DNA from: Psammoneis japonica
Taxonomy: Eukaryota
NCBI GenBank assembly: GCA_008632985.1
Contig: QPGO01000091.1
Span: 62,001 to 126,000, forward strand
DNA length: 64,000 nt
Reading direction: 5' to 3'
Notes under the pieces: generated by a model
The model's input: only the letters and a program-made list of their open reading frames with translations
Told to the model about the DNA's origin: nothing
The model's database searches: none
Shown here: one piece after another, positions 2,091-58,228 of the stretch
Position numbering within the stretch: the stretch's first letter is position 1
How the letters are laid out: each line of letters begins with the position of its first letter
Program-made: the position numbers and the translations under genes

Positions 2091-2214
2091 ATGCAAGTGT
2101 GCCGGTGTCCAAATGAACCGGGGTCTGCCGGTTGCTGAGGTTGGTGAAGGACGAGAATTTCGCTTTTTTGTCGAGTCCTCCAGGGAGCTGCTTCAGCAGC
2201 CCTTTGACACCCAT
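2002..2214 (-). pseudogene. N-terminal fragment of an XPG/FEN1/EXO1-family 5' nuclease
   Basis: MGVKGLLKQL...PVHLDTGTLAF resembles the XPG_N start (MGIxGL...xxIDxS). It is truncated by the duplication. Confidence 0.55.
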
Positions 2215-2524
2215 TCTGAGTGGCCATTTTTGCTTGTGTGTCCGTGTGTGGCAACTTATGTGACAAGAACGACATGGTGAATGCTGCCGCTGCGATGACT
2301 GCTGCAGTGAAAAAATCGAAATGATTTTCAGCTCAAATCCGCTTGACGTACAGTCTGTCTGTCGAACTTGAAATGAAGAAATCGTCGCCCGTTCGTTCGA
2401 TCGAATGAATCATACATCATCATGGCGTCGGGCGGTTCGTCCGGCGGTCGTCACTCGTGTAGCCTTCGCGCGCAACAATCGCGCTCACTTGCCACCCTGC
2501 CTGCGGGCGGCCGCGCGGCGGCGG

Positions 2525-2637
2525 CAGAGGTGCATAAATCGTCTGTTGTCGCCCGATGCGCGCAAACGCGAATTGTGCGCGCGCTGAGTGTGCGAATGCG
2601 CGTGTGCGAACGACAACAGACGATTTGTGCACCTCTG
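2525..2637. mobile_element. Small MITE-like element with 27-bp terminal inverted repeats
   Basis: cagaggtgcataaatcgtctgttgtcg (2525-2551) pairs with cgacaacagacgatttgtgcacctctg (2611-2637), with 1 mismatch. No clear TSD. Confidence 0.6.
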
Positions 2638-4872: not shown

Positions 4873-5529
4873 AGAGCACCCAATTCTACCAGTCGATCAT
4901 GCATTGTTTCAAAGAGGGGTTGCAACTTAAAACTTAAAGAAAAAAATCTACATTTTCTAACATGATAAGCTGAACAGAACGGGGACACAATTCGCACGCA
5001 TTCATCTCGACTACCCAATAGAAACGACCGAATTGAAGCATGCCATATGCATGGAGGCTAGCCGAAAGAATTGGTGGCGTCACAAGTGGGCTTGAGAAGT
5101 TCTCTCGCCAAAGCTGCTGCTCTAGATGCCACCGATGCAAATCGTCCTGACACTGTGAGTTCCTTGAATGAACTGTTCTGGGCACTGGAGAACATCAACG
5201 GCTCCACTCGGAACCGGGCCATGAGGTGATGTCTTTGGCGGGATTTTAAGCAATCAAGACCCGGATTCCCCAAATGCACTGATCCAATTGCACGCGGAAG
5301 TGAGCACAAAAAAACGCTTGAATGCATTCAAGAAGAAGCCAGAGAGTTGGATCTGATTGTTTGTCATTGGTGTGAGAAGAATGTGATGAACTGCTGCCCT
5401 TGCAAGATGCTGCACCAGCAGTGGGCTGCTGCTGCTGCATCCAGTGCTGATGCAATGATTGTCAAGTCCATGTGTTGAAGCAAGAATTTTTAGGCTGGTG
5501 CAGCAACATGGGAGTGTTTGAGCATTGCT

Positions 5530-8500: not shown

Positions 8501-11500
8501 CTGTTGTTGTTGTCATGAGTGTGGTCATTGTCATCATTGTCATTGTTGTCATTGTCATGCTGTCATTGTTGTTGTTGTTGTTGTTGTTGTTTGGTGGCAT
8601 GGCATTTGTGCTGCCAGATGGTCATTGTTTGCTGGCAGTTAGAGCTGTTGCTTTTTTCTGCAATTGATCACCATCATCCCCATTTTTGGCTTTGGCACTC
8701 TTGCCCTTTCCTCTCCTCATGACAGTTTCACCCTCTGGCAGCAGCAACAACATGAGCTTCTTTGCTTTTTCCAGCGGTTTTTGGTGGTGTTCTGCACACC
8801 ACAGCCTCACCACTGCTGTGCACTTCCATCAGCAGCTTGCTCATGATGCAATCAAAATCCCACTGGGTTGTTCTTGCTGGCAGAAGCAATGCAGCACAAA
8901 TGACTGAGATGAGTTTCTTCTGCCCAAACAAGCATGACACAGCATTGCATCAAGAACTCCCTTGCCATGACTTGGCCCTCTTCTTCAGCTGCAGCTGTGT
9001 CCTTGAGAATGTTCAGCATTTCATTGGGACAGTGCTCACAATCTACATTTCCACACCCAATGTGTTGAACTTGCATCAAACAGCGTCTTGTGCAGCCAAA
9101 GAACCTGGGTGCAGAAGGCCTTTTCTCTTGCACTTTCTGCCCTTTCTTCCAAAGTCAAGATTGCACTTCACTTTCTCCTTCCTCAACATCTGATGTGCCT
9201 GCCTGAAAGCAATGCCCACATGCACTCAATGCACAAGGTTTGACATCCTTCTAAAGACTCTTTGCTGCTGGGTTCACTCATCAAACAAAATTGACAAATC
9301 ATTGCAACACAGACTCCACATTTGTGCACTCAGTGTCCAAAAAGTGGGAGATGAGTTGGCACTGAGCAACCTTTGCAGACAGATGCATTTGGTCCTTTGA
9401 CAATCTCAGCTTCAAAGCTGGTGAGTTCTTTGTTGAATCCATCCACCCCAACTCCAAGGGGGTTTTGCAACATGTGTCCATTGCTTGTTTTCTCACATGC
9501 AAGAAAAGCCACCACAACCACAGTCCAAATTTTGCAGCTTCAAATTAGAGCCATTCTTGCAGCTGACTTGACATCTTTCACAACGATGCTGCCCATGCTG
9601 GCTTTGCCATTTGGTCCAATGCACATTGAAAGAAAGATGGAATCTCCTGACATCAACCAGTCAACTTCTGCATCAATGGCCAACTTTGCAACACAAGAAC
9701 CCAATTGAGCTGGTGTCAGCACTTCAAATGAAACAAGTCCCTTGTTTGCAAAGTGATGCAATGAACGAATGTTTGCATCTTTGTTGCAAAGCAGCCTGTT
9801 GGCAACTGCAGCCACTTCATTGCATTCATCAACCTGCGTGTCTTTTTTTGAAATTTGTTCACTTGTGCAGTGTGTTTGGCTGCATGGTGGTTGTTCTCAT
9901 CTGACAGCCAGAGATTGCATGTCTCAGCCCACATGACAATGGGATGCATCACTTTGTTTGCTGTCTCTGCATGCCAACAACAAGATCTTTGCTTGGGTGG
10001 GTGTTGTGCAACTTGGTTGATGTTGTGCACAACATGCCAATTGACCAGAAAATTGGACAAGACATGAGACATTTGTTCAGCGACAGCACTGTCTCTGGTG
10101 AGTGTGATGATGTGTCATGTGCGCACTTGCACCCAACAAGATTTGCACCTGTTGCACACTTCACATGACACCCTGGCTGTTGCATGACACCAGTTGCTGC
10201 TTTGTCAACATTTCACAGCATGTCTGCATTCTGACTGGCAACAGCAGCTTTGTGCTTCATGAGAAACATTGCCAAATCACCCAGGGCAGGGCTCCTCTGT
10301 CTGCTGCACTGGACTTTGTCTTGAGATGACAAGCAGATGGGTGGGGTGATGCTGCTGGGGGATGAAAGAGTGAAAGCAATTTGCACACAAATGCAGAATA
10401 AATGGCATGTCCATTCATTGGCACAATGTGGGATGTGAGTCATTCTCAGGTTGGTTTTTGAATTGAAGTGAAAACTGCAGAGTGAGGCTGAAAAGCTCGC
10501 GCATGTGCACTCCACACAAAACTGTGTGGTGTGCCAAACACAAGACTCACTGACAAGCTGCCCATCTTGCACTGCTCTGCATTTTGTCAAACTTCAGCCT
10601 GGTCATTGCTGCAGCATGCACTCACTGGGCATGATTGTTCTGGACCCAAACCATCACCACTGAGACAGTGTAAAAAGTCCACAAAGGCTGGATTTTGTTG
10701 AGAGTTTCACAACTTGTGCATTTGGCAGATGCCTGACAGAAGCACATCAAGGGCAGTGCCACTCTGCCTGCCCCCCCCCGCCCCCTGTCAAAATGGCACC
10801 ATCAGCTGTGCAATGATCATGTCCTCCTCTTAAGAAAAGGCGGGGCACCTCCCAGAATGACCCCAGAGGTCATTCCCTCATTGTCAGACAAGGCTTTCCC
10901 CCCAACTCTGCCTCATCATGGATGCCCCCAGCAACCAAGCCCTTGGCATTGCTCAAATGACTCAAACAGAAGCATGCACATCAAGTGCAGCAGCAAAGTG
11001 CCAGCAAACACATCATGATCCCCAGCTTGAGCCGAGCCACAGAAAACGTCATTGCCAAACACCCGTTGTGGGTTCATCAAGTGCAGCAGCAAAGTGACAC
11101 ATGTGTGACATCCCCCTCTTCCTTGGCACACATGATCAAGCTTGCACCCAATCACAAGGAAAACCTTGTCATCAAGCACCCAGCTTAAAAAAAGTTGGAA
11201 ATGAGAAAAAGAGAGGGAGCTTTGGCAGCTTCTGACCAGGTGTGGTGTTCCCTGGGTGTCATCATGAAACATGCAAGATGCAAAGATCTGATCATTGTGT
11301 GTGTGTCTGCAGTGTGTCATGCTTGTGCTTGTGAACAAGAAGCCCAACACATGACAGTTGGGCATGGACAAATCATGAACTGCAGAGTTTCGCTGCAAAA
11401 GTGCCAAACAAGAATCTCACAACATTTGAGTTGAGTTCAGCTCCCATCTCCTGTCTCAACAAAGTGTTGCTGGAAAAGTGCGAGAAGAAGAGGGAAAAGA

Positions 11501-11600
11501 TTTCACAGACTGCCCAAATGCTGCTTTTTGGCAAGATTGACCCAAGCATTTGCTGGGGGATCACTGTGGTGCAAATGAGGTCAACGAATTTTTCGCCACC
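5530..11600 (-). mobile_element. Heavily mutated repeat or DNA-element relic encoding an XPG/FEN1-like nuclease (about 9300-10200)
   Basis: TA and CG are almost absent. Minus-strand fragments read AKLAIDAEVDWLMSGDS (XPG I-region-like), NPLGVGVDGF (H3TH-like) and KCATGANLVGCK (possible N-domain). Termini are not identifiable. Confidence 0.5.
8495..8592. repeat. (TTG)n/(TCATTG)n microsatellite
   Basis: gtcattgtcatcattgtcattg...ttgttgttgttgttg is visible directly. Confidence 0.85.
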
Positions 11601-28024: not shown

Positions 28025-28679
28025 GGTCGAGTTGACGGCTGTTGTAGTCGTTGCTTTTTTGTGATCCCATCATCAGTTTTGCGGTTTTCGCCGGAGGAAG
28101 CACAAGGAGCGACGTACGTACGGTACGAAGATTTGGCCCAATCTAAAAAAAATTTGAAAATTCCCAAAAGCAAAAAGCAAACTTGGAAGCCCATCACTCT
28201 GTAACTATCGATCTGACGCTCGACACGTCGACACTTAGGTCGTATCGTTGTACACCCTCCATGGCGTTTCTTCAAACTTTTCTGGTTTGAACTGAGCGGT
28301 CGTGGAAGGCAAAAACGTCAATCTTTGAGATCATCGCGCAAATCTTCTGATGTCAAATGATTTCAAGCGTCTTTGGCATGTGATGATGATGAGGCTGCGG
28401 CAACGGAAATGCCGGGTTTGGAATGCGATGAGTGCAATGGAATGATGATTTGCACACGAAACACCCATTTCACTCCAATTGACGAGCGCATGCACTGACT
28501 TTGTGTTGAATCTTTTGCAGAAGCAGAGTTTTCCCGTCGATTCGCAGGTGAGTTTGTCACCGCGACGATTTTCACTCACAGTTCCGTGGAACAAAATGCG
28601 TGCAACGATGAGCTTCATGTGAACCAAAGAGCAGCAAATCTTGTGTTGCGTGCATTGTGCACCGAAAGGAGCTGTCAAA

Positions 28680-30230
28680 TCACTCCACTCGAACTTTTTT
28701 AGAGGGCAAAGGAACGCCATGAAGGAGGAACATGCACTCCTCTGGCCTTTTCTCCTTGGCAATGAGTTTTTCGCGAAGTTTGCCAACATGTTTGTCCTCA
28801 TTGGCATGGTCGAGGATTTCCTTCGAGCGCACGACATGTCGTTCAACACAGCCAATGTGCCCTTCCAGGAGAATGCACTTCAAATGCCCCAGCAATGGGT
28901 CCACGAATGTTTTCTTTTCGACGTCGAAATTGGCCGTGATGGTGGAAAACACACGCTTCTTTTGAGTTTCCAGCATGCCAGTGTGAACTTGTTGAGACGC
29001 AATCTCAGTCTTGGCCTCTTGCAGACAATCCATCACGTTGTGTGTGCCTTTGCAATGCGACAGCCAGCACCAGAGGAGTGGTGTGGCGACAATTTGTTGT
29101 CAGACAACAATGCACAAACCTTCTGCTTGAACAGATTCATCATCTCTGTTGGGCAAATTTCTTCTTCGCAAAATTTGGAATCGAAACAGTGGCTGGTGGT
29201 GCCACAAGTTCCTTCCTGCCGGAGGGCTTCGAAGCAAGCATCCTTGAAACGCGGAAGTGCATGTTTCTGAATGTGAGCTTGGTCTGTCAGCCAAAAAGAA
29301 AACATGAGAGATGGTGCAAGCCGTGGGAAGCCGGAATTAATTGACAGAAAGGAGATGTCTTACATTCAGCTGGGATTGCCAAAATCAACCATCCATGGAT
29401 TTTGGTTGACGGTTCATTTCGCAAACATTGAGCTGATTGACTCGAACGTCATTTCGGTGGCTTTCTTCATGAATTCCTCTGCGATCGGTTTCCAGAGGTT
29501 CTTAACTTTTCTGACTGCATGTTCGAACACTTCCTGGCCCTGGAACAATGCACAATGGAAAGAGTTGATTGCAAAGCCCGAGGTGGCAAATTCAATGGCA
29601 ACCTCACCCTTGGTCTCGTTGATTTTGTCCTTTAGAAGGAGCAAGCACTTGTTTGAAAGATCCTTCTCCAACTCGTTGATCTGGTCCTAAGACCTGATGG
29701 CAACAGTTTGCAATCTCAATGCGAGACTTCAGCTCCACACCAACTTTTTCAAGTTGCAGTTGGGTCTTGTTGAGATTGTCGGAAACGCTCTGTTTCAACA
29801 GGGGCAGATGTTTCTTTGCGAGGTTGGCAAACAGAGGCTGAAGCCTTTCCTTGAGCACAGTGACACCAGATCTTTCATGAGGCACTTTGCACTCTTCACT
29901 GAGCTGTTTCAATTCCATCTGATCTCCTTGTTTGTCCGATTGAAGTTTGCCATCTTTGCCAACTGAAACAATGGCATGTGGACCCAAGTTCAGATGACCA
30001 GTGACCAGCAACGTCCGTGCCATCCGCAGAAAGTAGAAAGGCCATCGACGACCAGCTTGACAGCTCTGGCTTGAGTGTCAGGAGGGAAAGCTCCAGGACA
30101 AATTCAGCCCTGCCACTGGCATTGCAGAAATTGTCCAATTTTGTCACACTGCTTTTGCACTCACTTGGGGGCTGTGTTTTGCATGTCCTTGACAAGCTCG
30201 CATCACAAGGCAACCAAAGAGACAAATGCT
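28680..30230 (-). pseudogene. Dynamin/Mx-like GTPase relic (end of G domain, middle domain, GED)
   Basis: TKLD (G4-like), then SGVTVLKERLQPLFANLAKKHLPLLK (middle domain), then ITANFDVEKKTFVD...EDKHVGKLREKL (GED). Split over several ORFs and TA-depleted. Confidence 0.65.
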
Positions 30231-30369
30231 GAACAGAATTTGCCATTCGCAAAATTCTCATGAACTTTTTTGACTCTCTGTCAGCCCAAGGGTGAAGGCA
30301 CTGACTGCAAGGAATCCTCATTTGGCAAAGTGAGGTTGCGGTGTTTGGGCCCCACACTGCATTGGAAAT

Positions 30370-31527
30370 GAATCTCTCTGTTGGGGCTGCCCTGACGGCC
30401 TTTCCAGAAAGACATGTGGTGCTTCCAAAGGGATCGATGACGAGTGGATGGGTTCCAGCATCTGCGTTGGCTAACCCGATTTCACATGGTGAAAACCTTG
30501 GCTTCCCCGGTTGTTTCAACATGTCGATGATTTTGGCACACTTCTGGGGCCCCTCCAGCATCAAACGAGCAACGCTCTGCTCAATGTCGCTGGGAATCTC
30601 TCCATCCATCTCCGTCTCTAATTTCCTGAAAAAGAATCTCCAACCGGCGTCGGCCAACTCTGCCCGCTTCGCGAATTGTTGGCCAAGCAGATTTTTCCTG
30701 GATTTTTTGTCTGTGGGTTGTGTTTGCATTGACGATTGGCACAGATCCTGTGGCTCACCAAATTTCAAGTCGAATTGTCCGGCAATGTCACTGGAAAGCT
30801 GTTCCCTCCGAAGTTTGTCCACAAAGGAAGTGGGCATGCGGGGGGTCAAATGGTCTGTTGCCTCTTTGGGGGCAAAGTCACCAATGTGCACGCCAATCAC
30901 TCGGTGGGCTTCAAGGTTCAAACCTGCCTCAATGGCAGCTCTTGAGTCTGAAATGTCAACGATGATTCTCGGATGTCCTCTGTCACGTTTTTCGCAGGAC
31001 AATGTCTTTGCCTGGGTGACAACGCCATTCAATGCGCTTCCGCCGCAGCCGGCTTCGAGCGACACTGCGACAACTGGCTTCGACAGTGGACTCCAGGCAA
31101 AGACTCTTTCGACAAAACTTTCAGACTCCGGGGTCCCAAACACGTGAAGCCTTCTTGACAACTTTTCAATCAGCTCATCTTGAGCTTCGTCGTGATCTGT
31201 TTTCTTTAAACTGACATTGATCACCCCTCGGTGGCCACTGAGGGCATGTCGAATGAGCGATGTTTTCCCTCCACCCCTGTTGCCAAAGACAAGAACAGTT
31301 TTTGACTGTTTGTTGTTTGATGCTTCCAGCAATTCTTTTTCCAACGAAGCACGTTCAACAAATTTGCTGTCATTGATTGTTTCTTTCGGGCCGACCTTGA
31401 TCAGCAGCAACGAGGCGGAAACAATGGCTCTGATTTGCTCATGGATGGGACAAATGACAGCGACTGACATCGCAACAAACTGCAACCAGAAGAAAACCGA
31501 CTCCTCCAAGCTTGCTTCATTTGACAT
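30370..31527 (-). pseudogene. P-loop ATPase (AAA/STAND-like) with N-terminal TM segment, TA-erased
   Basis: FVERASLEKEL...VLVFGNRGGGKTS Walker A. There is no Tyr in the 543-aa ORF, whose tail runs into the dynamin relic. Confidence 0.65.
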
Positions 31528-33444
31528 GGTGCACTCAGCTGGTTGAGACCCAATTTTAACGTCTCTGCTTGTTTGGTGTCCCCATTGGCACCTGAGGTTG
31601 ATGGGTGATGTGTGGCTCTCCTGTCCACGCGTGCTGCATCTTCACTCGCCGCGGCGACGAAACCTGATGCAGGCGATGCAGACTCTCCACCGATGGGGTG
31701 TGGCAGCAACGCACGAGATCAGACGTTGCAAAATTTAGCAGTTGTTGGAGGCATGGCGAACATTGGCTTGAAAAAGAAGGGAGTCATGTGGCAATCATTG
31801 TCAGGACCACAAAAGACAGCATCGATGATGTCCAATGCATGGTGGACATCAACAGGCTGCTGCTCTGGTTCTCAAACAATGGCATCATTGTCAGATTCCC
31901 TGTCATCCAAAGCTGTTCCTTGGCTTGCATCATTTTCGTTGTTGTCATCATGCAAGCCATCATCTGCAACGTCCAAAGCAGGTTGGGTGCCGGACATTTG
32001 TGCTGCTGTTGCTGTGTGCTCCTGGTCATGCAAAGGGCACAGCACGGGCATTCTGTCATTGACCCCATGGGGCAACACATCATGAGGAAAAATGCACTTC
32101 TTCACAAATTTGTGGCAATTTTCAACAGCAATGAGAGCTTTTTTGGGCACAGTTGGTTGAGTGCATCACAGGTCATCAACAACAGATTGACAGGGGACTC
32201 AGGTTTTGCAGTTTTTGAAAGAGCAGCACTGCTCCTCCAGCAGCACACAGATGCAATTCAAATGTGTCTGTTTGTTCCAAAGAGAGCTCATCATGTTTTC
32301 ACATGATTTGACTTGGATGGCTCAGTTTTGAGTGACAAGAAAGAGTTTCCAAGCAAGCCTTTGTCAGAAGATTTGAGTTGACTTTGAGTTTTTGAGTTCT
32401 TGTTCCAAGCAAGTCAAGCTGTGCATGGAAACTTCCCAGTCTCAGCAACCTTTGATCTCCATGGGCGCAGCAGCAGCAACAACAACAACAGGTGGGCAAT
32501 GAGCCACACTCTGGGTGGGGCAAGTGAGATTGCAGTTTGTTGGTGGAAGCATCTCAGCATCAGCCATCCCTTCTTGTGCTGCTTGTTGCATTTCTTTGCA
32601 AGTTTTCAAATGCCTTTTGGTGCACTGGCAAATTGCATCCCATGGATCATGCCCCAGCTGCAAGCAAAAAAGCATGAAAAGCCTTGTGGGGCAAAGCCTT
32701 GCAGGCTTTTTGCCCTCACAATTCATTTCAGCAGTTCCCTGAAAGACCCAACTTCCTAAAGCTGCATCATGCTGCATTGAAGTCAGCTCCAGCCTGATCC
32801 AAGCACAGCACCACTCTGCTTCAACATCATTGGCAGAAGCTGCCTCTTCCTGCTTGTGTTCAATGTGCCGTTCTTGAACCTCCAAACATGGTGTCTCATG
32901 CAGATTGCTCACCTGGTGTGGCTCTTCTGCAAAAAGCTCCCAACTAACTTCCAAACTCTTCCCCTGCAAGCAACATGATGCCTGCTGCAGATGGCAACAC
33001 AGTGACAGTCAGTGTTGTGCCCAACCACTTGAGGAGCCAGGCAAGTGTTCAAACTGGCAGTCATCATCATGTCTGCCACCAGGTGGCTGGCTCATCTCTT
33101 TGCCCGTAATGTGATCTTGCTCTGGCAACAAATTGCAGTTGATTGCTGGTGATGTTGGTGCACTGCTTTTGTTTCACAGCAGAAATTCTTTGTGCTCCAT
33201 CCAGTCACTGGTGGGAAGCAAGATTTTTCATGGTGAAATGAGAAATGTCAAGAGATTCTACTTCAAGTCACAGCAGCAACTCAGCACCACCGCTGCCTGA
33301 GGCATGCGATGAGGTGGCAACATGTTGGCGAGGAGTTGATTTTGTGCAACTTCACAAGCCGGCAACAACACAACGGCAGTCCAACCATCATAGACTGCCT
33401 CTCCTGCTTGAAAGACGCCACACAGCAACATTGTTGCTGGCTTT

Positions 33445-34957
33445 CTACAACCTCTGCCTGCTGTAGATGGCAACACAGACAGTCAACGACGTGGCACTCG
33501 CAGAGTCAGGCAAATGTTCAAACCAGCAGTCATCATCATCATCACATCCGCCACCGGGCACTCGACCCATCTCTTCGTCCGCAATGCGATCTTCCTCCGT
33601 GTGGTCCATGAAACCAGACTGTGGGCCTTCTCCTCCATTCAAATCACTCGCCGAAGGACCTCCAGGAGGCATCAGCTTTTGCTCCAACGCAGTGACAGTC
33701 GGGTGCTTGGGACTGGACCCGCTGAAAGCTCGGCCAGTGAGAGCGGACATCATCACTTCATGCTCCTTTCTCTGTCTGACAAAGTGCCCATAAGCAGTCA
33801 AGCCCTTTGGGTCCTGTTTTGACTTGTTGGCTCCGGCAGCAAGCAAAGCATCGATAACTCGAGTTTCCCCTGTCCCATTGATCGAGTTACGACCCGCAGC
33901 AGACACTGCCGCACACATGAGCGGCGTGATCCCATGTTCATCCGCCGTGTTGACGACAGCGACTCTCGACTCTACCATCTCCAACAGGGCCATGAGAGCA
34001 GCGTCGTTGTTGTTGGCAGAGGCGGCATGCAGGGCGTGGGAGCGATCGATCGAGCCACCTTCAGTGACGAGACGGGACACATTTCTTAGAAGATCAGCAA
34101 GCTGGGGTGCGGAGGGCTGATGGGACGACTTGATCGCCTGTAGAATCTCCGCATCCTTGCCACTGGGAGGCGGTGGTTTGGGAGGTGGCACATGGAACTG
34201 GATCGCCTGAGCTTGAGCATGCGTCAATGTGGGCATGCCACCGGCTCCCTTTGGGGCCCAATTTCCGTAAGATGCCACAAGGAACCTTTCGTTGCCCTGA
34301 TTGGCAAGGGCAGGATCCTGAAAGAAACCGTTTCGGAGAAATTGGTTGGCATCCAGGCGAGCAAGGCCGTCGAGTTGAGTCTTCTCTGCCGCTTTGGCCT
34401 TTCGATCATCGTCGGTTTCAACCTTGCTTTCAAACGGAGACCGAGAATGCCAGGCCTCTCTCTGCTTGGCTCGGAAGCTTTCCTTCTCCTGACTTGTCAT
34501 GGCCTCCAATGGATCCAGAACACACACAGCGGATGACACTTTCCAGCACCCAAACTGGAGATCTCCACGGATGAACGGGTGGTGAAGGAACTGGTGCAAA
34601 GCAGCTGTCCCGATGTCTGAAGCCCCGTTCACTTTGCATTCATCGTTCACATGAAGAACATTGATGCACATTGTGTCGAACTCCGGGTCGCCTGGTTCTT
34701 CCGTGTCACGGTTCAAAAGCAGTCACGCCAACCTCCTGCATTTCCTGACTGTGTCCATCCACAGCCGACATGAAGCAACCGTCAGGGATTCTCTGTCTGT
34801 CAATGATGGTCGCCACAATGCATCCAATCTTCTTGGTCTGATGGAGCACAATGTCTGCCTGAACGTTCGTGAAGGCACCACATTCACCGTCCTCATCCAA
34901 CGAATGCGTGAGCTGCAGCGAGACATCTGCGACGCTCGAAATTGCAGGGGAGCTCAT
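33445..34957 (-). pseudogene. Ankyrin-repeat protein gene, TA-depleted, interrupted near 34706
   Basis: ALHAASANN...ADEHGITPLMCAA...LLAAGANKSKQDPKGLTA. The N-terminal ORF 34706-34957 ends at TGA. 3 Tyr in 423 aa. Confidence 0.7.
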
Positions 34958-34965
34958 TGCTGAAT

Positions 34966-35229
34966 AGCTTCATCGTGGAACCCCGCAAATGCGCGGGGAC
35001 CCTCCTGTGCCGCAGAGGTCTACGCTCATTTTTGTGTGTGGCACTGAAACATGTAGCCTGCATGCGCAAAACTGGCACAGTTTCTACGACAAAATTTCGA
35101 AAAAACGCCTAGTTCGCGAGATGGCTCTGGTGCAAAACGCACGTAAAGAGTCCCCACACATGCACGTGCAACTCTGCACATTTCCGGGTTACGGGTCCCC
35201 GCGCATTTGTGGGGTTCCACGATGAAGCT
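34966..35229. mobile_element. MITE of about 264 bp with 37-bp terminal inverted repeats
   Basis: agcttcatcgtggaaccccgcaaatgcgcggggaccc (34966-35002) pairs with gggtccccgcgcatttgtggggttccacgatgaagct (35193-35229), with 1 mismatch. Confidence 0.8.
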
Positions 35230-37132
35230 GAACTCCAGGGTAGAAAAAAAAGCTCGACAGAATTCCTTCTCTTCTGAGGACTCTGGGAGAAAAAGAGATT
35301 GCAAGGGAATGATGAGAAGACACCGCAGCAAAAAACGATCATGCCTCATTCATCATTGTGGTGTTCCGGATCTTTTTTTGCTTTCTTTGTTCGTGATGCG
35401 TCTGTGAGTCTGCACGCAAAGTTCGAAAAACAGAAAAGGCGCAAAAAGCAAGAAGCAGAAGGGGTGATGAGCGAGCGACGAGCAGACAGAGAACCGCGAC
35501 ATTCTGCAAACATTTGCTTGTCATTTTGGGTGTCGCCACTTTGGGTGTCAGTCGCCACTTGCAACGAGAATCATCGCAGTGGCGGTCTTTCTGTGCAGCA
35601 TTTTCTGCACATGTTTTGCACTTTTGTCCGTCCCCACCACCTCCAGCCCGATCCGAGATGGCAGGGACCGATGGGTGAAAGCACAAAAAACAAGCGCAGA
35701 AATCACCACATGGGCAGACCACCACTGTGACTCTCATTGCAAGTGTGGCAACACCCAACTCATCTTGCATTTCTGCTCAATTCAGTTGACTCCCTTGACC
35801 TGACTCTCTTGCCAGTGGATTTCAGAGACAGCCGTCCACAGCCAGAGAGATGGAGGGAAATGGAGCATGGGCTTCTTCAGAACCCATCACAACAGATTTC
35901 CAGAGAGAGCGGCGAGGTGTGGAGCAGCCGCAACACTGTTCTCTGAAGGCAGGCACACCACTCATTTGTGTGCCAAAAAAAGCAAACAAGGAGCAGCCCG
36001 TGTGCCACATGGCAAGACTGTGGTCGTGGGTGAGAATTTTTGTTTTTTGTCATTTGAGTTCTCTCCAAGCCTCATGCTCCAAACAATGACCTGCAAATGC
36101 CATGTTGCAGTGCATCACTTTGAGCATCATTTCAAGATGTGTGCTTTTAAGGCATGCACATGAGTTGCACACAGCAGCAAAATGTCGGGCAGACAACGGC
36201 TGTGCAATTGACTGCAATTTGCACGACAAATTGTCGTTCAATGCCAAAGCTTGCTCAGAGTGCACCACTGCTTTGATGTTCTCAAAGAGCCCCGGGAACA
36301 CATTGGTCATCTCAGCATGCAACAGCTCTTCTTTCAAAAGCTGTCTTTGACAAAGCCACTTTGCAAGACATTGCTCTTCTTCAGCTTTGGCACAGCACAA
36401 GAGTGCTCCCTGCTGTTCTTTTGTGGCAGTTTTCTGAAGAGCGGGACAACAACAGCAGGGGTGTGGAAATTCAAAACTCCAAACTGCCCCCCAAGCCCTT
36501 TTCACAAGCACACGCCCAAATTCAAAAGCTGTGCTCAGCAGCAACAAAACATCACTTGTCAACACCAGCATGCAGCTGCTGGGCCACACAGTGCTGGGCA
36601 GACACTTTTCTCTGCCTCTGGTGCGGACAGGGGACCACTCACACAACACATGGGAGCCAGTGCAATTTTCCTGTCAACTGTCCCAACAAATCTTGTGATG
36701 ATGTTTTGGAGCCAATCTCCCACCCCCCCCCCCCCCCCCACCATGTGCAGCAGGAGCTGGCAGCATGCTGCTGTGGGTGGCAGAGTGTGCGCATGTGGGG
36801 AGGGGGGGGCGAGTGGTGCGTGTCAGGAGGAAGCGCGTGCAAAATCTCATGTGAGGTTTCCCTGAAGCTCAACCCAGAGAAGCCAGCTGTGAGGTGTCTC
36901 AGCTTTTGCAGTCTCTGTGTGCTCTAGAGAGAGAGAGAGAGTGTGTGTGTGTGTGTGCTTCTTGAGGTCGCTAGCTCGAAAGGGCCCATGATGTACCGGC
37001 AACTCCTCAACACGAGGGATGTGAGAGACAGACAGAAAGACAAGACAGACAACGATTCGGCGGGAAGTTGTTTTTGACACAAATCTTCGCGAGTGACACT
37101 TTCCTTTTCCTTTCTCAGTAACACTGTCGAAC

Positions 37133-52459: not shown

Positions 52460-55400
52460 ACATTATTTTTTGTGACGGACACACACAAGCGGTCAACAAG
52501 CAGTGAGCAGGCTGATTTTGTGGGGCTACACCATTTGGCTCAGATCGCGTTTCTGCATGAGGCTTTGCAAAACAGGGAGCACAAAAAACAATTTCACAGA
52601 AGAATGTGGAAATGTGTGTGCACACAATCATTTTTGTGCGTGAGCGATCAAAAACTGTCAGTGTCGCACCCCAGCACTGCAAGCTCCCACCCAGGGCTGG
52701 AGTGTGTCGAGCAGGCAACTGGTGCCCCCCATTGATCCCAGTGTTTTCATCCAAATTATCAGCAGATTCAAGAGGAGCAGGAGATGAATGCAAAAGAAAG
52801 GTGTCAAATGTCGGCATCATCTGGCTCTGCTGCTGCTTCACAAGCAGAGTGGCACAAACTTTTGGGAGCGACAGCAGCTGTGTGCTTCTTTGCCTTTTTC
52901 GCTGCTGTTTCAAGCTCAGTGGCAGAACATTGGAAATTGCAGCACTCTTGTTGGCATCATCTGATTGCACGGCAACTGTGCTCAGCTCCTCCACTGTTGT
53001 GCACTCTCACTGTTGCCTCCCTTGTCCAAGGATGCACCACCTCAGCTCTGCTTCCTGGCAGCATTCCCTGAAATGCTTGAGCATTGAAGAGCCATCATTG
53101 TTCCAAAGAGGCTGTGCCACAGGCAAACATGTTGCATGTTCCCACTGCAAATCACAAAATCAGCCATTGTCTGCTGGCTTGGCTTGGGTTTTTCTCATCC
53201 TTTGGAGCATTGTTGTGCCCTCCTCCACATTTGCTTTGTGGCCACCTGAATTGGCAAAGGGATGGCCCACCTTGTGCTGAAGGTCCAGGTGCTGCTTCAC
53301 AGCAATGCTGCTCAACACACAAATCTTGGCAGTTGTCACTGTGCAAACTTTGCTGCAGTTGATGCCTCTGACTGCCCCTCGCCCAACTTGTCCACTTTGA
53401 ACTTTTGGCAACATCTTTTTCAATGTGGGAGAAATTGAAATCATCTGTGCTGACATTGTCATTTGTCCATTGAAGAAATTGACCACACCTCCTGCCATTT
53501 GATCCTTTAACAAGCTCAACTTGGTCCCACAGAAGGGAGCAAATGCCTTTGCCAAAGTCAAATGCCTGGCATGTGTGCGCAGCCTTGGGTTGTTTCAGCA
53601 ACCCCTGCAAATGCTTCAAACACATCATGTGTGAAATTCTTCCAGAAATGCCCAAATGCTGGGTCCATGGCATCATGCTCATCATGCGCACACATGTGAT
53701 GCCAAATGGAAAAATCTGGAGAGACCAGCTTGACATCCAGCCATTGTTGCCATGCGCGCGCTTTTGCACAACAAACTCCAGCACCAGAGCACACACAACA
53801 ACTTTGTGTGCAACATTTGTGCTCCTGCCAGCAACAACAAGAAATCTTGGATGAGACAGCAAAGGGGTGGTGGGTGGTGGATGCAATGTTGCACCATGAC
53901 AGTTGCAAACTTGTGTCAATCACCAGCCCAAAGCTGGTTTTCCCAATGTCTTTGTCTTGCCAGCTGTCCAGCTCATCCAGGAACAAATCTTATGGGCTTC
54001 AAAGTGTCAGCACCCCACTGGACAAACAATGCAGACCACCCTTGTGCTGCTCAACTTGAGCTGAAAAAGATGTGCTCAGCTTGGAAAAGCAACACTTGGC
54101 ACACTTTTTTAATCCTCTGCACCCAAAAAGCTCATCAAGGCAATTGCCCATGGAGGCATGACATGGATGTCACCCATGATCTTGATGGACCAAAAAATGC
54201 ACTCAAACTGGTCTTCAACAGCTGCACACCAAGCACATGTCTTGCTGGATTCATCATGGCAATTGCTCTTGTCATTGATGCAACGATCCATGTCCTGGTT
54301 GCAAGCGATGCTGGTGCTGCACAGCAGGGGAATGCAAGTGATGCATTTTGCCTGGACAATCGTCTCTGGTGCATGGAAACTCATCTGCCATTTGGACAGC
54401 AGCAAGAAGTTGTTGTTTTCTTCCACCAGGTGTTCCTCTTCACACTCTGCTGTCAGATTGACCAGCCTGTCAGAGTGGGGCTCCTGTGCTCCACGCATGC
54501 TCTGTGTGCATGCACATCACACCACACTCCAACTTTGACTCTGTTGCAGCACCACAAGTGGAGTCCACTGCTCCACATCTGTCCCAGATTGCTGGTCTTC
54601 TGGGTGGGACCCCACAGCTCTGCTGGGTCCATGAGGATGACTGCAAGAGGAAGCAGCTGTGATTGAAAAGTCCACACTTGAGTTGGAGGCACACTGGATG
54701 ATGGGAAGCTCAGAGCAACTGACTGTGAGCAGGACAGCACAGCCCACTGGTGGCCCAAAATTTGCAACACAGATCATGTGCTCAAGTCCAGACTCAAGTC
54801 AAGTTTCAAGCCAAGCTTGTCAACCCCAATCTTCTCTCCTGATCCCAGCCTGCCCAAGTTCCACCTTGACCCCCTGCTCATCACCATGGTTCTTGCCAGC
54901 CAACAGTCCATTGATGGCCTCAATCATGTGATTGGCACTGTTTTGGCTCAGCCTGTCAACAGCCCTCTTTGTTCTGCTTTGGCTGTCAACACCCTTGTCA
55001 GGTGTGAGGATCTGCTCTCCCTTGCTCCCTGCCAGGCCCGGCTCCAGCTCCAGGTGAATCCCATCACTGGCCCATTTTTGCATTTGGCACAATGAACTCC
55101 TTCTTTTTTCCAAATCGAAGGGTGAGTGCACACAAAACTTTTGTTTTTTATGTGCACTCACCTTTTTATTTTCAAAATGATTTGAAGAAAATGTGCTGAA
55201 CTGCACAGAAAATCAAACTCTTGTGTGATGGATTGTGGACAACATGGGGCTGGAACAGGCCACCAGTGCCATTTTGACAACCTCCAGTGCAGCAGAAATG
55301 GTGACACCCTTGCACCCCTGCCTCATCATCACAAGGCTCTGCCAGTGGCTTTCTCATCAGTTTCAACACTTTTGAAGGGGTTGCTCAAGTGCACCTGTCA

Positions 55401-57848
55401 GCAGTGACTTCACTTTGCTCACCCATGAAGAGTTCCAAGAGCATTGTCCTGGTGTCCAGGTTGTGTGACATCTCTGCTTTCTAATGTTGCTGCTCGTTGC
55501 TCCCCCTTCACCCAAAAAGCCACATTGCACCACCAGCCACTTGGTCTGCACCCCAACAGACCTGTCATGTGCTGTGGGCCACTCTCAATGTGCTCTAAAA
55601 ACAACATGTCTATCCTGTGCCATGATCCATTGACTGAGCCTTCTGTGTGCCCCAACAGGCCTGTCCCATGCTGTCAGTCAATCTGACCTTGCACCTTCCT
55701 CTGCAAATGGCAGCACACTTGCTGAGGAATGGCCACCATGCCTCCCCAAGTGTCGACATGCCCTGTCCTTTGAGCTGCACTCTCCGGCTGGTCTTGGCCT
55801 TGCCCAGGCTTGTGCCTTCTGAGATGTGGATGTGCCCCATCCTCCAGGTTGCACTTCATTCTTTCCAGGTTGCACTTCATTTGGGGTGCCCTCCCAGAGT
55901 CATCCAGGGCAATCATCCTTGAGCCCTCCAAGCCCTGAGCTGCCAATTTTCATGCATCAGCATCTGCCAACCTCTTCAGGCACCAGCCAATCTTTGTTTG
56001 GAGAGTGACAGTCAAGTCAATTTGCCAATGATGACTGACAGCATTGCTTTGTTTTCCCTGACCTCCTGCCACCAATGCTGCTGCCACCACCAACATTTCT
56101 GCACAGGACAATGACTTGTGTTTTTTGCACCTGCAGATGGGAAGTTGTCTCCATTTTTCATTGTCCATCACCAAATCCTGTTCAGCATGCAGGGCACCTG
56201 ATTTGTCAGATGGGGAGATCACAAGGCCCAAAAAGCAGCTTCGCTGTGTTGGAACTTGAGTCATGCAAAGGTCCACATCTGAGCCTCACAATCTAAAAGT
56301 TAGAAAGATTCAAGCTGTGAAAGAATCAAGCTGTGGCATCAAGCTTGGATTGGAGAATGGAGAGATCATGGCCAAGCTGCACTCCTTTCTCATGCTTCAC
56401 CTTGCCACAAGTGCACACATTTGATCTCTGGGCTGAATCTGCATGCTGTGCCTTCTCAAGAAGCTTTTGATTGACTGAATTTTCAAGAAACAAGGCCCCA
56501 TGGACCAAAATGCTGTTTGTGGTTCTTCTGGGTTTGTTGCATCCCACACTCCAAGTTGTGTGCAAGCATCATGCCGCCTTGTGCAAGAAGCACTGCTCCA
56601 GCACCCTTTTTTGCCCCATGCTGTTTCTGCTCTCATGTGTCCTGTGTCCCAGAACTTTGGTCCCAGGGCTTTTGCTGATTCCATCATTGATGTGGTTCCT
56701 TTGGGGCTCCTTCCAGCAAAATGGGAAGTGACAGAAAAGATTAAACAGGGTTTCAGCTGTGCACAATTTGTCAAGCCCTGCGTTTGTTTGGTTGTCACAC
56801 ACAGGCTTGTGTGCTCTTGTTTCTGCTGGCATTTGTGTTGTGCATGCCATGCAGTTCTGCTCTTGAACCACACAGCTCACATGAAATGAACAGCATCTCT
56901 GTCAGCTCCTGTGATGGTCTCCAGATGGAGACTCATCTGCCATTTGGACAAGAACAGCAAGGAGTTGTCATTTTCTTCTGCCAGCAGATTCCTCTTTGCA
57001 CTCTCCTGTTGATGCAAAACAACTGGTGCAGGTTTTCTGCGTGCAGCAGTCAAAATCCAAAAAAAGCCCTCTGAGCTGTCTTCCACAAAAATTCTGCAAA
57101 CACATCTTTCTGGACACAACTGTGACACCAAGGGCACTGACACACTTTGCAACTCAATTGCACCACTCAGCAGCAAAAATTGTGAGCACAAGATGCCTGT
57201 GTGACTGACCACCAAAACAATGGAAGCGCAAGCAGCCAAGCGGACAACATGTTGGGGGGAGAACATGCACTCAAAGAATTTGGAAGTGTCTTTCCAGGAT
57301 TTCTGGCTGGTGCCCTCTTTCTCCTGCATGGCTCATGTGAGCCATGGCAGAGCCACCATGTGGGGCTCAGCACAAAGAAACAGCACAGGTTTGTCAAGCT
57401 CTGCTTTGACTTTCCTGCGCTGGGCGTGCAAAAAAATCCAACAGAGCCATGTTGGACCTGCACCCCCCCTCTGATGCAAAAACAGAGCAACAGTGTTTTG
57501 TGGTGGGTTTTTGTGGATTGTGTGTGGCACATTTTTTGGTGTGAAAGAGGCAGAGCACAGCTGGTGCCACAAAAGGGCAAAACAACAAACTGCAAAAGGG
57601 TGCGCTGCAGCAAAATGAGCTTTGTGCTGCAATGAAAATTTGGGGGAAAGTCTGTCAGATTTTTGCTTGCACAAAATGCATGATGATGGAAGAAGGGTGG
57701 ACACAACATGCGACCTCAGCACGTGCATCTGCAGCACTGCATCAGAGGCCTCTGCCCAGAGAGGGCCTTGCTGCGCAGGCCTTTGCTCTCTCTCTGCTCT
57801 CCAGCCAGAGAGCACCAGAGCCACTCTCTGGCTGGAGAGAGCAGAGAG

Positions 57849-57883
<35 letters not shown>

Positions 57884-57905
57884 TCTGCTGGCTCTCTCTG
57901 CCACT
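52460..57905. mobile_element. Unidentified hypermutated repeat relic (TA- and CG-depleted) with an internal duplicated segment
   Basis: Composition as in the other mutated domains. About 54370-54450 resembles about 56925-57010 (actcatctgccatttggaca). No domain recognised. Confidence 0.45.
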
Positions 57906-58228
57906 CTAGCTAGCTACAGCAGAGTGCTTCTCGAGAGTAGAGAGAAGCAGAGAGAGTGCTGTAGGGAGCGCGCGTTTCTTCACACATCGTCATTCGTGAC
58001 GGTGCGTTGTTTCAAAAATTTGAACTCTTGCGAGTCGTGTGTGATCATACCGTAACTGCAGTACGGGGCTGTACCGTACATCCTTACATAATGGAGCGTT
58101 GAAAGACAAAAATTCCCATTCTTGAGAAGTCGTGCCACCACCGACAAATGATCATCCCGTCCCTTGGACGAAACACCTGAACAACTTCCCACTTTTTTGG
58201 TTTTTGACCATTTGTAAGGACCGGCATT

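Follow-up and report, generated by a model that had tools for sequence, protein, structure and literature searches.

Why is TA nearly absent from discrete blocks of otherwise ordinary DNA, and why have some of these blocks lost CG as well? The question is raised by a stretch of 64 kb (the window): ∼40% of it consists of sharp-edged blocks in which almost all TA has become TG or CA. The initial annotation had described two tiers of erosion, loss of TA alone and loss of TA together with CG, and proposed that TpA mutation is faster than, or precedes, 5mC decay, so that the two ratios could date silencing. The host genes in the window are closest to those of diatoms, the main primary producers of the ocean. 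The window contains one 279-N gap and so belongs to a draft assembly.

Two nested tiers of dinucleotide loss

As background we took 11.7-28.25 kb and 36.9-52.4 kb of the window, with TA at 40-41/kb (o/e 0.59-0.60) and CG at 53-55/kb (o/e 0.95). The domains said to have lost TA and retained CG (28,251-31,720; 33,300-35,720; 1-3,300) were found as described, with TA o/e of 0.03-0.16 and CG nearly kept. All domains said to have lost both dinucleotides were recovered too, although the one placed at 36.05 kb starts at ∼35.75 kb; block E (Table 1) was absent from the earlier list. The five both-lost blocks have TA o/e of 0.01-0.10 and CG o/e of 0.10-0.24, with TG and CA doubled: in these blocks CA and TG reach o/e of 1.7-2.06, as against 1.35-1.49 in the TA-only blocks. 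Gaps of at least 250 bp without TA numbered 35, where 0.10 would be expected from background density; for CG there were 24 such gaps against an expected 0.005.

Table 1. Eroded blocks, the inserted element and gene copies in the window
Feature	Position	Strand	Description
Block A, TA-only	1..3300		TA 10.0/kb (o/e 0.16), CG 52.4/kb (0.85); runs off the window start
Block B, both lost	5300..11600		TA 2.2/kb, CG 5.4/kb, TG+CA 243/kb
Block C1, TA-only, ∼24% CG loss	28251..31720	-	TA 3.5/kb (o/e 0.05), CG 40.9/kb (0.69)
P-loop NTPase pseudogene (P0001), block C1	∼31,527 to 30,355, reads on to 29,899	-	weak AAA_16 match
Block C2, both lost	31750..33250		TA 2.0/kb, CG 6.0/kb
Block C3, TA-only	33300..34965	-	TA 6.0/kb (o/e 0.12), CG 54.6/kb (0.74)
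Ankyrin-repeat pseudogene (P0002), block C3	34,942 to 33,448	-	frame break near 34,690
MITE-like insert within TA-only block	34966..35229		TA 22.7/kb (o/e 0.43), CG 75.8/kb
Block C3b, TA-only tier resumed	35230..35720		TA 2.0/kb, CG 48.9/kb
Block C4, both lost, CG ∼30% of background	35750..36925		TA 0.9/kb, CG 16.2/kb
Block D, both lost	52757..57907		TA 2.3/kb, CG 6.0/kb
Block E, both lost, small normal islands	62290..63880		TA 6.9/kb, CG 9.4/kb

Nesting of the tiers was scored on 254 N-free 250-bp segments: 148 were normal, 60 TA-low/CG-low, 25 TA-low/CG-normal, 11 TA-low/CG-mid and 10 TA-normal/CG-mid. Not one of the 254 was TA-normal/CG-low, which bears out the earlier statement that no domain of the window combines CG loss with normal TA.

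The blocks are 0.5-6.3 kb long, with edges of at most 50 bp and GC content of ∼0.48-0.55. They are not copies of one another in comparisons within the window, even in a transition-blind alphabet, and for most of the 28-37 kb block there was no second contig at ≥80% likeness in the public run X1. The targets have no close paralogues. Block C4 runs up to a (GA)n(GT)n microsatellite that precedes the next host gene by ∼200 bp.

Among the TA-low segments CG o/e is bimodal, only 11 of 96 being CG-mid, so that two discrete states fit as well as two age classes. The tier also switches within 30-50 bp between sub-blocks of one contiguous 8.7-kb eroded stretch, which requires insertions of different ages nested in one another, or methylation that is itself patchy. 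Both features favour independent targeting, with TpA hypermutation on all silent blocks and CpG methylation and decay in a subset of them; the tiers would then reflect methylation state and not age. We consider this rather unlikely, though it deserves serious attention, and evidence on both its sides appears below.

The slight fall of CG o/e in the TA-only tier (to 0.78) is mostly due to a normalisation effect: converting all background TA in silico yields CG o/e of 0.80 with zero CG lost. In raw density, 28,251-31,720 is the sole TA-only block that has lost CG, and this loss of ∼24% counts against independent targeting. The same is true of the rank order of the blocks, which is shared by residual TA and residual CG (as percentages of background, 24/∼97 in A, 15/∼100 in C3, 8/76 in C1 and 2/30 in C4, with 5/10-11 in B, C2 and D).

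Direction, context and strand of the changes

TA and CG were both lost by mutation, with TG/CA as the product in each case. The joint fraction of TA, CG, TG and CA among dinucleotides is 0.240 in background, 0.235 in the TA-only tier and 0.245 in the both-lost tier, and when the TA of background is converted in silico, all 16 dinucleotide ratios come out as in the TA-only tier. With respect to TA, the changes are exclusively TpA→TpG/CpA, as in hypermutation of the Bigelowiella natans type: the sum of the four dinucleotides is conserved, Tyr is replaced by His or Cys and stop by Trp. They are also restricted to discrete regions beside normal DNA. The CG loss follows CpG→TpG/CpA with CpG o/e going towards 0.1-0.2, as expected of 5mC decay. 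The TAs that survive suggest an extended sequence rule, in which YTAR, especially TTAA, CTAA and TTAG, would be poor substrates.

The changes are strand-symmetric. TG is about equal to CA in all blocks, and a runs test on TG/CA labels detected no strand runs (z from -0.7 to +0.4 in six of seven blocks). On these two grounds RNA-level ADAR hyperediting of a retro-copied intermediate, which would leave clustered A→G changes on a single strand, was rejected.

A single polynucleotide deaminase with two activities on DNA, one at A in TpA and a much slower one at C in CpG, would account for confinement of both losses to the same blocks and for CG loss never occurring without TA loss; a preprint on B. 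natans cites reports of ADAT2-type enzymes with deaminase activity on A as well as on C in DNA (10.64898/2026.01.13.699255). However, the context geometry differs, as the edited A stands after T and the edited C before G. Moreover, 5mC decay ordinarily leaves CpG→TpG/CpA changes, and diatoms are described as methylating CpG in silent blocks (PMC5124317). In B. natans 230 of 231 hypermutations were A/T→G/C at TpA, with CpG unmentioned in the main text of the report (10.64898/2026.01.13.699255). A single enzyme of this kind seems to us very improbable.

Gene copies in the TA-only blocks

Open reading frames in the TA-only blocks exceed those of a Markov simulation (P ≤ 0.003), and long frames with homologues are still open. 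Block A carries a Harbinger-type transposase frame (3-1220, plus strand; PF13359 DDE_Tnp_4, E = 6e-11) with one Tyr in 406 residues. Blocks C1 and C3 contain copies of cellular-type genes; no viral gene was recognised among the targets.

The P-loop NTPase pseudogene of block C1 has no Tyr in 581 residues, while its relatives have 3-9, and it has Trp at the relatives' stop position, i.e. the stop is read through. It is 85% identical to one relative (P0004), with changes Y→C, Y→H, R→H and R→C; 17 of the 50 residue differences fit TA→TG/CA and 8 of 50 fit CG→TG/CA, both counts being greedy upper bounds.

The ankyrin-repeat pseudogene of block C3 belongs to a conserved family (36 homologues at 35-56% identity). 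Of eight conserved Tyr columns, defined by Tyr in ≥60% of eight homologues, the block C3 copy keeps one (the others being H in three, C in two, P in one and L in one), whereas the homologues retain 5-7 apiece. The relatives' N-terminal 84 residues match 34,942-34,691 in a frame other than that of P0002. Related loci in metagenomes (22 of 22, 101 kb) have normal TA, with o/e of 0.53-0.89.

One could argue that the composition predates integration, the blocks being foreign DNA, viral or from a mobile element, that underwent editing at the RNA or cDNA stage, or was naturally devoid of TA and CG, and was then inserted. The sharp block edges, the transposase in block A and the lack of homologues for the both-lost blocks agree with such an origin. 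Against it, block C3 copies a protein family of large eukaryotic contigs, all with normal TA; P0001 had no match in the viral contig collection; the TA-only composition equals host background after TA conversion; and the strand symmetry with random interleaving of TG and CA argues against editing of a single-stranded intermediate. In addition, the in-place CpG and TA/CA differences from X1 (see below) mean that change continues at the locus. We hold an origin before integration to be highly improbable.

Content of the both-lost blocks

A C2 fragment of ∼145 bp (32,979-33,124) is a paralogue of the 3′-terminal part of the ankyrin gene of block C3 (tblastn with P0002 residues 376-419, E = 1.6e-5). 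The alignment of the two (A2) pairs CG of the C3 copy with TG/CA of the C2 copy.

In block B no Pfam hit was found among 27 ORFs of ≥100 aa (5,250-11,650), the longest ORF (184 aa) is at chance level (P = 0.75 against Markov simulation) and the purine/pyrimidine period-3 signal is mostly null. In block D there was no Pfam hit among 26 ORFs (52,400-58,000), and a 310-aa ORF (53,734-54,663) had no relatives among 1.84 billion representatives. The both-lost tier as a whole gave no Pfam hit, and its ORF lengths are near chance (P 0.03-0.75 against simulation). Scored on purines and pyrimidines, the median period-3 signal falls from 1.93 in background to 1.71 in the TA-only tier and 0.90 in the both-lost tier.

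The both-lost blocks also have a GpC excess (o/e 1.35 versus 1.11-1.18 simulated) and a GA/TC deficit (0.87/0.93), a signature that the TA-only blocks do not carry. The two losses do not generate it, so the both-lost blocks may have another origin or may be subject to a third process. Being limited to this tier, the signature suggests a different kind of DNA and so speaks for independent targeting.

Differences from the contigs of run X1

The blocks are present in X1 contigs too, which differ from the window at 6 positions in 5,973 bases and at 1 in 1,543; the run is possibly from the same sample as the assembly, so that differences may be haplotypes, and they are unpolarised. A sequencing or assembly artefact, such as base-calling errors at modified bases, is hardly credible given this agreement, even if the platform of the run is not on record; nothing specific points to an artefact beyond the draft state of the assembly with its gap.

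CpG transitions make up 9 of the 12 differences between the window and X1 in TA-only blocks, a 30-fold per-base excess (Fisher 7e-8); thus CpG decay is in progress within these blocks. Differing CpGs were 9 of 242 in TA-only blocks and 0 of 154 in flanks (Fisher 0.014). CpGs that are so much more variable than other bases of the same blocks, and than CpGs of the flanks, appear hypermutable and are probably methylated, which argues against tiers set by methylation state alone. One TA/CA difference was seen among ∼20 residual TAs. With a 30-fold excess, 90% CpG loss implies ∼8% other change, so the age needed for CG saturation is by itself insufficient to explain the absent coding signal of the both-lost blocks.

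Order of the losses and dating

The earlier proposal that TpA mutation is faster than, or comes before, CpG decay gains partial support from the strict nesting, the shared rank order, the long open frames of the TA-only tier as against the chance-level ORFs of the both-lost tier, and the ongoing CpG change. Dating by two ratios survives in part. CG is usable, although this clock saturates near o/e 0.1; TA is at its floor in every block, and therefore only CG can be a clock. After a short first phase TA carries almost no timing information.

The second TA-only block is split by an insert of 264 bp without TA erosion, MITE-like in having 37-bp terminal inverted repeats (34,966-35,002 and 35,193-35,229, 97% identity). 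Up to 20 X1 contigs match it at 80-95% likeness. As this dispersed element keeps its TAs, the TpA process is not continuously saturating at that place.

Proposed mechanism and its meaning

We think it fairly probable that two context-specific transition processes, at TpA first and then at CpG, act on discrete blocks in the nuclear DNA of a diatom or a close relative. The targets would be chromatin-sized blocks. The first process would change TpA to TpG or CpA, i.e. A to G on either strand, both strands equally, and would be near saturation, with 2-25% of TA left and with Tyr codons and TAA/TAG stops removed; its enzyme may be a DNA adenine deaminase, as proposed for B. natans. The second would change CpG to TpG or CpA, with the signature of 5-methylcytosine deamination in CpG-methylated silent DNA. 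If the first is much faster, or came as an early burst followed by slow CpG decay, every targeted block would already be TA-free. The TA-only tier would then be recently silenced DNA with recognisable gene copies and the both-lost tier old, featureless DNA. CpG methylation, the time order and a role in defence against foreign or silenced DNA are the parts of this scheme that we infer.

The block pattern looks like that of a targeted DNA-mutating defence. We give nearly even credence to the broader proposal that diatoms carry an active, region-targeted defence by adenine deamination at TpA, on both strands and at any copy number, upstream of CpG decay and shared SAR-wide. If so, silenced chromatin is edited at TpA until no TA is left, block ratios trace a fixed path with TA falling first and CG later, CG can be used to date silenced DNA and, together with B. 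natans, the locus would indicate an ancient system with a wide distribution across the SAR supergroup.

Comparison with known systems

Repeat-induced point mutation (RIP), a genome defence of ascomycete fungi, depends on duplicated DNA, in which it turns C into T, chiefly at CpA, so that TpA is gained and GC content falls. The pattern described here resembles it in that silenced DNA is irreversibly mutated by dinucleotide-specific transitions, with coding capacity wrecked and skewed blocks left. Unlike in RIP, TpA is destroyed, GC content is kept, targets are without close paralogue and one dispersed repeat is spared. RIP was rejected, since TpA is removed rather than made, there are no repeats among the blocks and most of block C has one contig per place.

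Among animal defences, ADAR converts A to I on dsRNA, favouring 5′ U, and APOBEC/AID enzymes convert C to U on ssDNA. They share with our case deaminase-type transitions with neighbour preference, the 5′ U of ADAR matching the T before the edited A. Here, in contrast, the changes are fixed in genomic DNA, strand-symmetric, unclustered by strand and saturating.

Decay of 5mC, as in vertebrate genomes and in repeat blocks of centric diatoms (PMC5124317), is similar in turning CpG into TpG/CpA block-wise to o/e of ∼0.1, and in affecting DNA that looks unexpressed, next to genes with normal CpG. For the centric diatom Cyclotella cryptica, CpG is reported as the main context of methylation, which lies in silent blocks up to 30 kb (PMC5124317). 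Unlike in those systems, CpG decay in our window, known from its sequence, occurs only in blocks already TA-free and alongside a GpC excess.

So far, TpA→TpG/CpA hypermutation appears in the literature only for B. natans, in a 2026 preprint, with a rate of ∼6e-7 per site per generation in integrated viral DNA (Mettrop et al., bioRxiv 10.64898/2026.01.13.699255). According to that source the targets are integrated giant-virus and virophage DNA, the per-generation rate is raised ∼1000-fold and the process is active only in some lines; DDE-endonuclease and RT domains are enriched in TpA-poor genes. B. natans is a chlorarachniophyte (Rhizaria), whereas the host here is a diatom-like stramenopile, with targets that include host-type gene copies. 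Depletion of TA is almost complete here, with o/e of 0.01-0.16 versus 0.45 in the giant-virus region there (cluster cut-off 0.43), and a second tier with CpG loss is present here, while the main text of the preprint has no occurrence of CpG or 5mC. What the two have in common, as far as the preprint describes it, is exclusive TpA→TpG/CpA change on both strands, confined to blocks and directed at single-copy targets, with DDE-endonuclease (transposase) genes among the TpA-poor genes and with a long-term trace of TpA depletion and CpA+TpG enrichment.

Two tiers of dinucleotide depletion

Averaged over the window (G+C 48%), the observed/expected ratio (o/e) is 0.39 for TA, 0.72 for CG and 1.39 for CA/TG; these averages conceal two kinds of DNA, background and eroded blocks. 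In background (11.7–28.25, 36.9–52.4 and 57.9–62.25 kb) we counted 35–41 TA per kb (o/e 0.56–0.60) and 53–55 CG per kb (o/e 0.95–1.00). The eroded blocks make up about 40% of the 64 kb; TA is nearly gone from them, with CG either largely kept (TA-only tier) or nearly gone as well (both-lost tier). The density of TG+CA is 145/kb in background and higher in the blocks, at 167–184/kb in the TA-only tier and 221–243/kb in the both-lost tier. We counted 35 gaps of ≥250 bp without TA (the longest is 1,252 bp), with 0.10 expected at background density, and 24 without CG, with 0.005 expected.

Features of the window and residual TA and CG (percentage of background)
Feature	Positions	Strand	TA/kb	CG/kb	TA left	CG left	Description
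Block A	1–3,300		10.0	52.4	24%	about 97%	TA-only
Block B	5,300–11,600		2.2	5.4	5%	10–11%	both lost
Block C1	28,251–31,720		3.5	40.9	8%	76%	TA-only
P0001	31,641–29,899	minus					581-residue frame in block C1
Block C2	31,750–33,250		2.0	6.0	5%	10–11%	both lost
Block C3	33,300–34,965		6.0	54.6	15%	about 100%	TA-only
MITE-like insert	34,966–35,229						264 bp; 37-bp terminal inverted repeats, 97% identity
Block C3b	35,230–35,720		2.0	48.9			TA-only
Block C4	35,750–36,925		0.9	16.2	2%	30%	both lost
Block D	52,757–57,907		2.3	6.0	5%	10–11%	both lost
Block E	62,290–63,880		6.9	9.4			both lost

The two tiers, proposed in the initial annotation from the sequence alone, are confirmed by the per-block densities and the gap counts. 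The block coordinates proposed there are accurate within ~50 bp, except that CG loss in the last sub-block begins at ~35.75 kb and not at 36.05 kb; block E is an additional both-lost block, absent from the original list. Among 254 N-free windows of 250 bp, 148 were normal, 60 TA-low/CG-low, 25 TA-low/CG-normal, 11 TA-low/CG-mid and 10 TA-normal/CG-mid. Not one was TA-normal/CG-low, which bears out the claim that no domain has lost CG while retaining normal TA.

The right edge of the eroded stretch coincides with a (GA)n(GT)n microsatellite (36,921–36,958); a C20 run (36,720–36,741) and a G run (36,800–36,809) lie near it. An assembly gap of 279 N is located at 58,813–59,091, with G+C of 0.34 in the 500 bases around it.

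Direction and context of the losses

Together, TA, CG, TG and CA account for 0.240 of dinucleotides in background, with totals of 0.235 for the TA-only tier and 0.245 for the both-lost tier. We simulated erosion by turning every background TA of the window at random into TG or CA. The result matched the TA-only tier in each of the 16 dinucleotide ratios (simulated/observed values were 1.29/1.30 for AA, 1.50/1.42 for CA, 1.47/1.44 for TG, 1.26/1.27 for TT, 1.17/1.17 for GA and 1.09/1.09 for GC). As the bookkeeping of the four dinucleotides balances and the simulation reproduces the TA-only tier, we consider the losses to be mutations. The CG o/e of this tier was 0.80 when simulated by TA conversion alone and 0.78 when observed; thus, most of its apparent mild drop is an effect of normalization.

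The direction of mutation is known from comparison of the frames in blocks C1 and C3 with their homologues. The C1 frame P0001, a P-loop NTPase pseudogene, has four relatives, the closest of which (P0004) is 85% identical. While the relatives have 3–9 Tyr residues, P0001 has none; columns with Tyr in all four relatives contain Cys or His in P0001, and several Arg positions contain His, Cys or Gln. The position where the relatives end is occupied by Trp, and the frame runs ~150 residues further. P0001 and P0004 differ at 50 residues. A single TA>TG/CA step in the window copy can account for 17 of these and a CG>TG/CA step for 8, while 2 fit the reverse change; of the remainder, 13 require a transversion, 5 another transition and 5 multiple steps. 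The classes were assigned greedily, so that these counts are upper bounds. A pattern search of viral_contigs with P0001 gave no match. For another C1 frame (28,334–28,879, minus strand) the atlas look-up produced only scores of ≤0.85, too low to inform, along with weak sub-threshold Pfam matches (Dynamin_M, 23.8 bits; 7tm_1, E=0.009).

The C3 frame P0002 (425 residues) is a member of a conserved family of ankyrin-repeat proteins; its 36 relatives are 35–56% identical, and several of them lie on contigs of 0.1–1.7 Mb. In the eight columns with Tyr in ≥60% of eight relatives, P0002 has one Tyr, three His, two Cys, one Pro and one Leu, while each relative, scored in the same way, retains 5–7 Tyr. 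Conserved Arg is retained by P0002 at 7 of 11 columns, about as in the relatives. The first 84 residues of the family match 34,942–34,691 in a frame other than that of the rest of the gene, indicating a frame break near 34,690 in the C3 copy (34,942–33,448, minus strand). All 22 loci of this family found in metagenomes (101 kb with flanks) have normal ratios (TA o/e 0.53–0.89, CG o/e 0.67–1.12). A 145-bp fragment from the ankyrin gene's 3′-end occurs twice, 476 bp apart (32,979–33,124 in C2; 33,455–33,599 in C3), on opposite sides of the tier boundary, the C3 copy with CG kept and the C2 copy with CG lost; most differing sites pair a CG in C3 with TG or CA in C2, and TA/CA differences run in both directions.

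The TA-removing process acts alike on both strands, with similar TG and CA counts in every block. TG and CA succeed each other at random along the blocks (runs-test z from −0.7 to +0.4 in six of them), with z of −2.5 in C3 and of −1.7 and −2.3 in background; the runs test on blocks gave no sign of the long single-strand tracts characteristic of processivity. Of the surviving TAs, 18 of 29 (both-lost tier) and 19 of 55 (TA-only tier) are TTAA, CTAA or TTAG, compared with 151 of 1,299 in background (Fisher test, 3e-10 and 1e-5, respectively), while a share of 17–19% is expected if survivors are new back-mutations from TG/CA. The survivors are non-random, therefore a pyrimidine before and a purine after TA seem protective, which suggests that YTAR is a poor substrate of the process.

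Content of the eroded blocks

The unaffected genes of the window are eukaryotic (zf-MYND/MSS51, DUF4470, DUF4419, exostosin, DUF2921 RING ligase, reprolysin and WbsX glycosyltransferase). Their nearest named relatives come from centric diatoms, namely Pseudictyota dubia (69%), a Coscinodiscus transcriptome (67%) and Thalassiosira pseudonana (64%), and an atlas cluster is mostly Bacillariophyta. This places the host with the diatoms or their close relatives, and not with Bigelowiella.

The TA-only blocks carry recognizable, damaged genes: a transposase (A), the P-loop gene (C1) and the ankyrin gene (C3). The transposase is of Harbinger type (DDE_Tnp_4, E=6e-11). Downstream of its frame we observed a ~180-bp direct repeat (1,465–1,640 and 1,894–2,084, 83% identical) and a 113-bp palindrome (2,525–2,637), which may be parts of the Harbinger-type element. 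The longest TA-only frames have 406–581 codons, lengths reached in none or almost none of 300 Markov simulations (P≤0.003), partly because TA loss removes TAA and TAG stops. The longest both-lost frames are at chance level in such simulation (P 0.03–0.75). At E≤0.01, Pfam gave no match for the 59 ORFs of ≥100 aa in 5,250–11,650, 52,400–58,000 and 62,200–64,000, nor for the ORFs of 31.6–33.0 kb and 35.8–36.9 kb; a marginal 310-codon ORF in block D (53,734–54,663) has no relatives among 1.84 billion representatives. The median period-3 signal in the purine/pyrimidine alphabet, a measure that transitions do not erase, is 1.93 in background, 1.71 in the TA-only tier and 0.90 in the both-lost tier, with noise at ~0.7.

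The eroded blocks are not copies of each other, even in a transition-blind alphabet. A blastn self-comparison of the window gave eight pairs, among which only the 145-bp fragment joins two eroded blocks, and the purine/pyrimidine self-comparison, whose E-values are not valid in a two-letter alphabet, added only short chance matches. No common terminal repeats were found upon alignment of six block edges. Over most of block C we saw a single contig of the public sequencing run X1 per place, even with likeness down to 80% admitted, hence repetition is not the mark of the target. Block B is flanked by a direct repeat of ~1.15 kb (4,122–5,269 and 11,699–12,788), 77.7% identical and 88–89% identical in the purine/pyrimidine alphabet. 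In both copies TA and CG are normal and a frame of 236 codons is open (4,162–4,872; 11,675–12,385), with no Pfam match; the arrangement resembles a host gene that was duplicated, the eroded block lying in between.

The MITE-like insert, the only clearly dispersed element, sits within a TA-free block, immediately upstream of the eroded ankyrin gene, and yet has normal TA o/e (0.43) and CG o/e of 1.05. Up to 20 X1 contigs match it with 80–95% likeness, which indicates a dispersed family. In the neighbouring intact ankyrin-repeat gene (start ~37,135) a contig of a second run, X2, lacks a 266-base stretch bounded by GT..AG (37,301–37,566), probably an intron; given this joint at 37,300–37,567, X2 looks like RNA. 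The X2 contigs match the flanks and the MITE-like element, with none on 28,152–34,679 or 35,448–36,983, although absent cover does not amount to silence.

CpG loss as a probable later stage

The initial annotation had also claimed that TpA loss precedes or outpaces CpG decay. Several observations count for such an order: the strict nesting, with no CG-low/TA-normal window among 254; the residual TA and CG, which fall in the same block order (see table); and the coding signal, wholly lost in the both-lost tier only. In C1, we estimate that TA has been lost at least about 9-fold faster than CG (ln 0.085/ln 0.76), a lower bound since TA is already at its floor.

An alternative is that the TA-only blocks are an unmethylated subset, the tiers marking methylation state and not age. 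Comparison with X1 bears on this issue. Its contigs cover 27,054–38,500 at 99.8–100% identity; X1 is possibly from the same sample as the assembly, and the differences may be alleles and cannot be polarized. In TA-only DNA, 12 differences to single X1 contigs could be placed: nine are CpG<->TpG/CpA, one is TpA<->CpA and two are transversions, one of which makes a CpG (one more difference, in a contig over 33,645–35,052, was not placeable, and 33,642 and 33,647, near a contig end, were excluded). This corresponds to 9 differences per 242 CpGs versus 3 per 4,798 other bases, a 30-fold excess per base (Fisher test, 7e-8). In the 2.7 kb of flanks we saw one transversion and no change at 154 CpGs (Fisher test, 0.014); the both-lost parts, where almost no substrate remains, do not differ from the same contigs. 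This concentration at CpG indicates that the CpGs of TA-only blocks are hypermutable now, as a model of fast TpA loss followed by slower CpG decay needs and as a pure unmethylated subset does not expect.

Other observations count against a later stage. The CG o/e is bimodal with few intermediates, and the tier switches within tens of bases in one contiguous eroded stretch. In addition, the both-lost blocks have a GpC excess (o/e 1.35 versus 1.11–1.18 simulated from ORF and non-ORF background). Simulated erosion of TA and CG from either background did not reproduce this excess, and we found no single transition able to yield it. Blocks B, C2, C4 and D also have a deficit of GA/TC (0.87/0.93), with AGC, GCA and CCC up and GAA, TCA, ATC and GGA down in all four, a pattern that the simulated erosion likewise failed to generate. 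The GpC excess and GA/TC deficit could reflect a third process or a different ancestry.

The claimed order is supported by the nesting, the rank order, the loss of coding signal and the CpG excess against X1, but is not proven; TA loss followed by CG loss is the best-supported reading, and we regard it as fairly probable. As for the proposal that the two ratios could date silencing, TA saturates almost at once, which leaves CG alone as a possible clock.

Comparison with known systems

According to the accessible text of a 2026 preprint on the chlorarachniophyte Bigelowiella natans, an integrated giant-virus region and a virophage region undergo ~6e-7 mutations per site per generation in mutation-accumulation lines, a rate 1000-fold that of the genome; A/T->G/C changes, all at TpA and in some lines only, made up 230 of 231 mutations (10.64898/2026.01.13.699255). 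That genome has 124 clusters of TpA-poor, CpA+TpG-rich windows, its TpA-poor genes are enriched in DDE-endonuclease and reverse-transcriptase domains, and an ADAT2-like adenine deaminase was proposed as the enzyme; the main text of the preprint mentions neither CpG nor 5mC (10.64898/2026.01.13.699255). In the diatom Cyclotella cryptica methylation is described, in the accessible text, as chiefly CpG; it lies in silent repeat blocks reaching 30 kb, adjacent to gene-rich blocks that are unmethylated (PMC5124317). By analogy with these silent CpG-methylated blocks, 5mC decay would be the economical reading of the CG loss.

In the window, the TA loss represents what TpA->TpG/CpA hypermutation of the B. 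natans kind leaves in the long term. The CG loss reflects a second decay, which is slower, specific to CpG and seen within TA-eroded blocks only. In the full-text literature, outside subscription journals and bioRxiv supplements, we found no TpA hypermutation in diatoms or stramenopiles and no link of it with CpG loss. If our reading is true, TpA-directed hypermutation is not confined to one chlorarachniophyte and reaches saturation in a diatom-like genome too, where it has remodelled ~40% of 64 kb and destroyed copies of ordinary cellular genes; the next question would be what enzyme and what chromatin mark steer TpA editing. The nesting of TA and CG loss, of which we found no description in print, offers a testable order of silencing and a possible clock. 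Since TA-eroded blocks have no TAA or TAG stops and no Tyr codons, gene finders would report long false ORFs in them, and transposons or viral inserts there would escape homology searches.

Fungal RIP changes C to T, makes TpA and depends on repeats; the TA process of the window is like it in logic and opposite in chemistry, and would, if true, represent a second eukaryotic genome defence that is RIP-like yet adenine-directed. Compared with B. natans, the change is of the same TpA->TpG/CpA kind; here, however, it is saturated, it occurs in a diatom-like genome, and its targets are copies of cellular genes plus a transposase.
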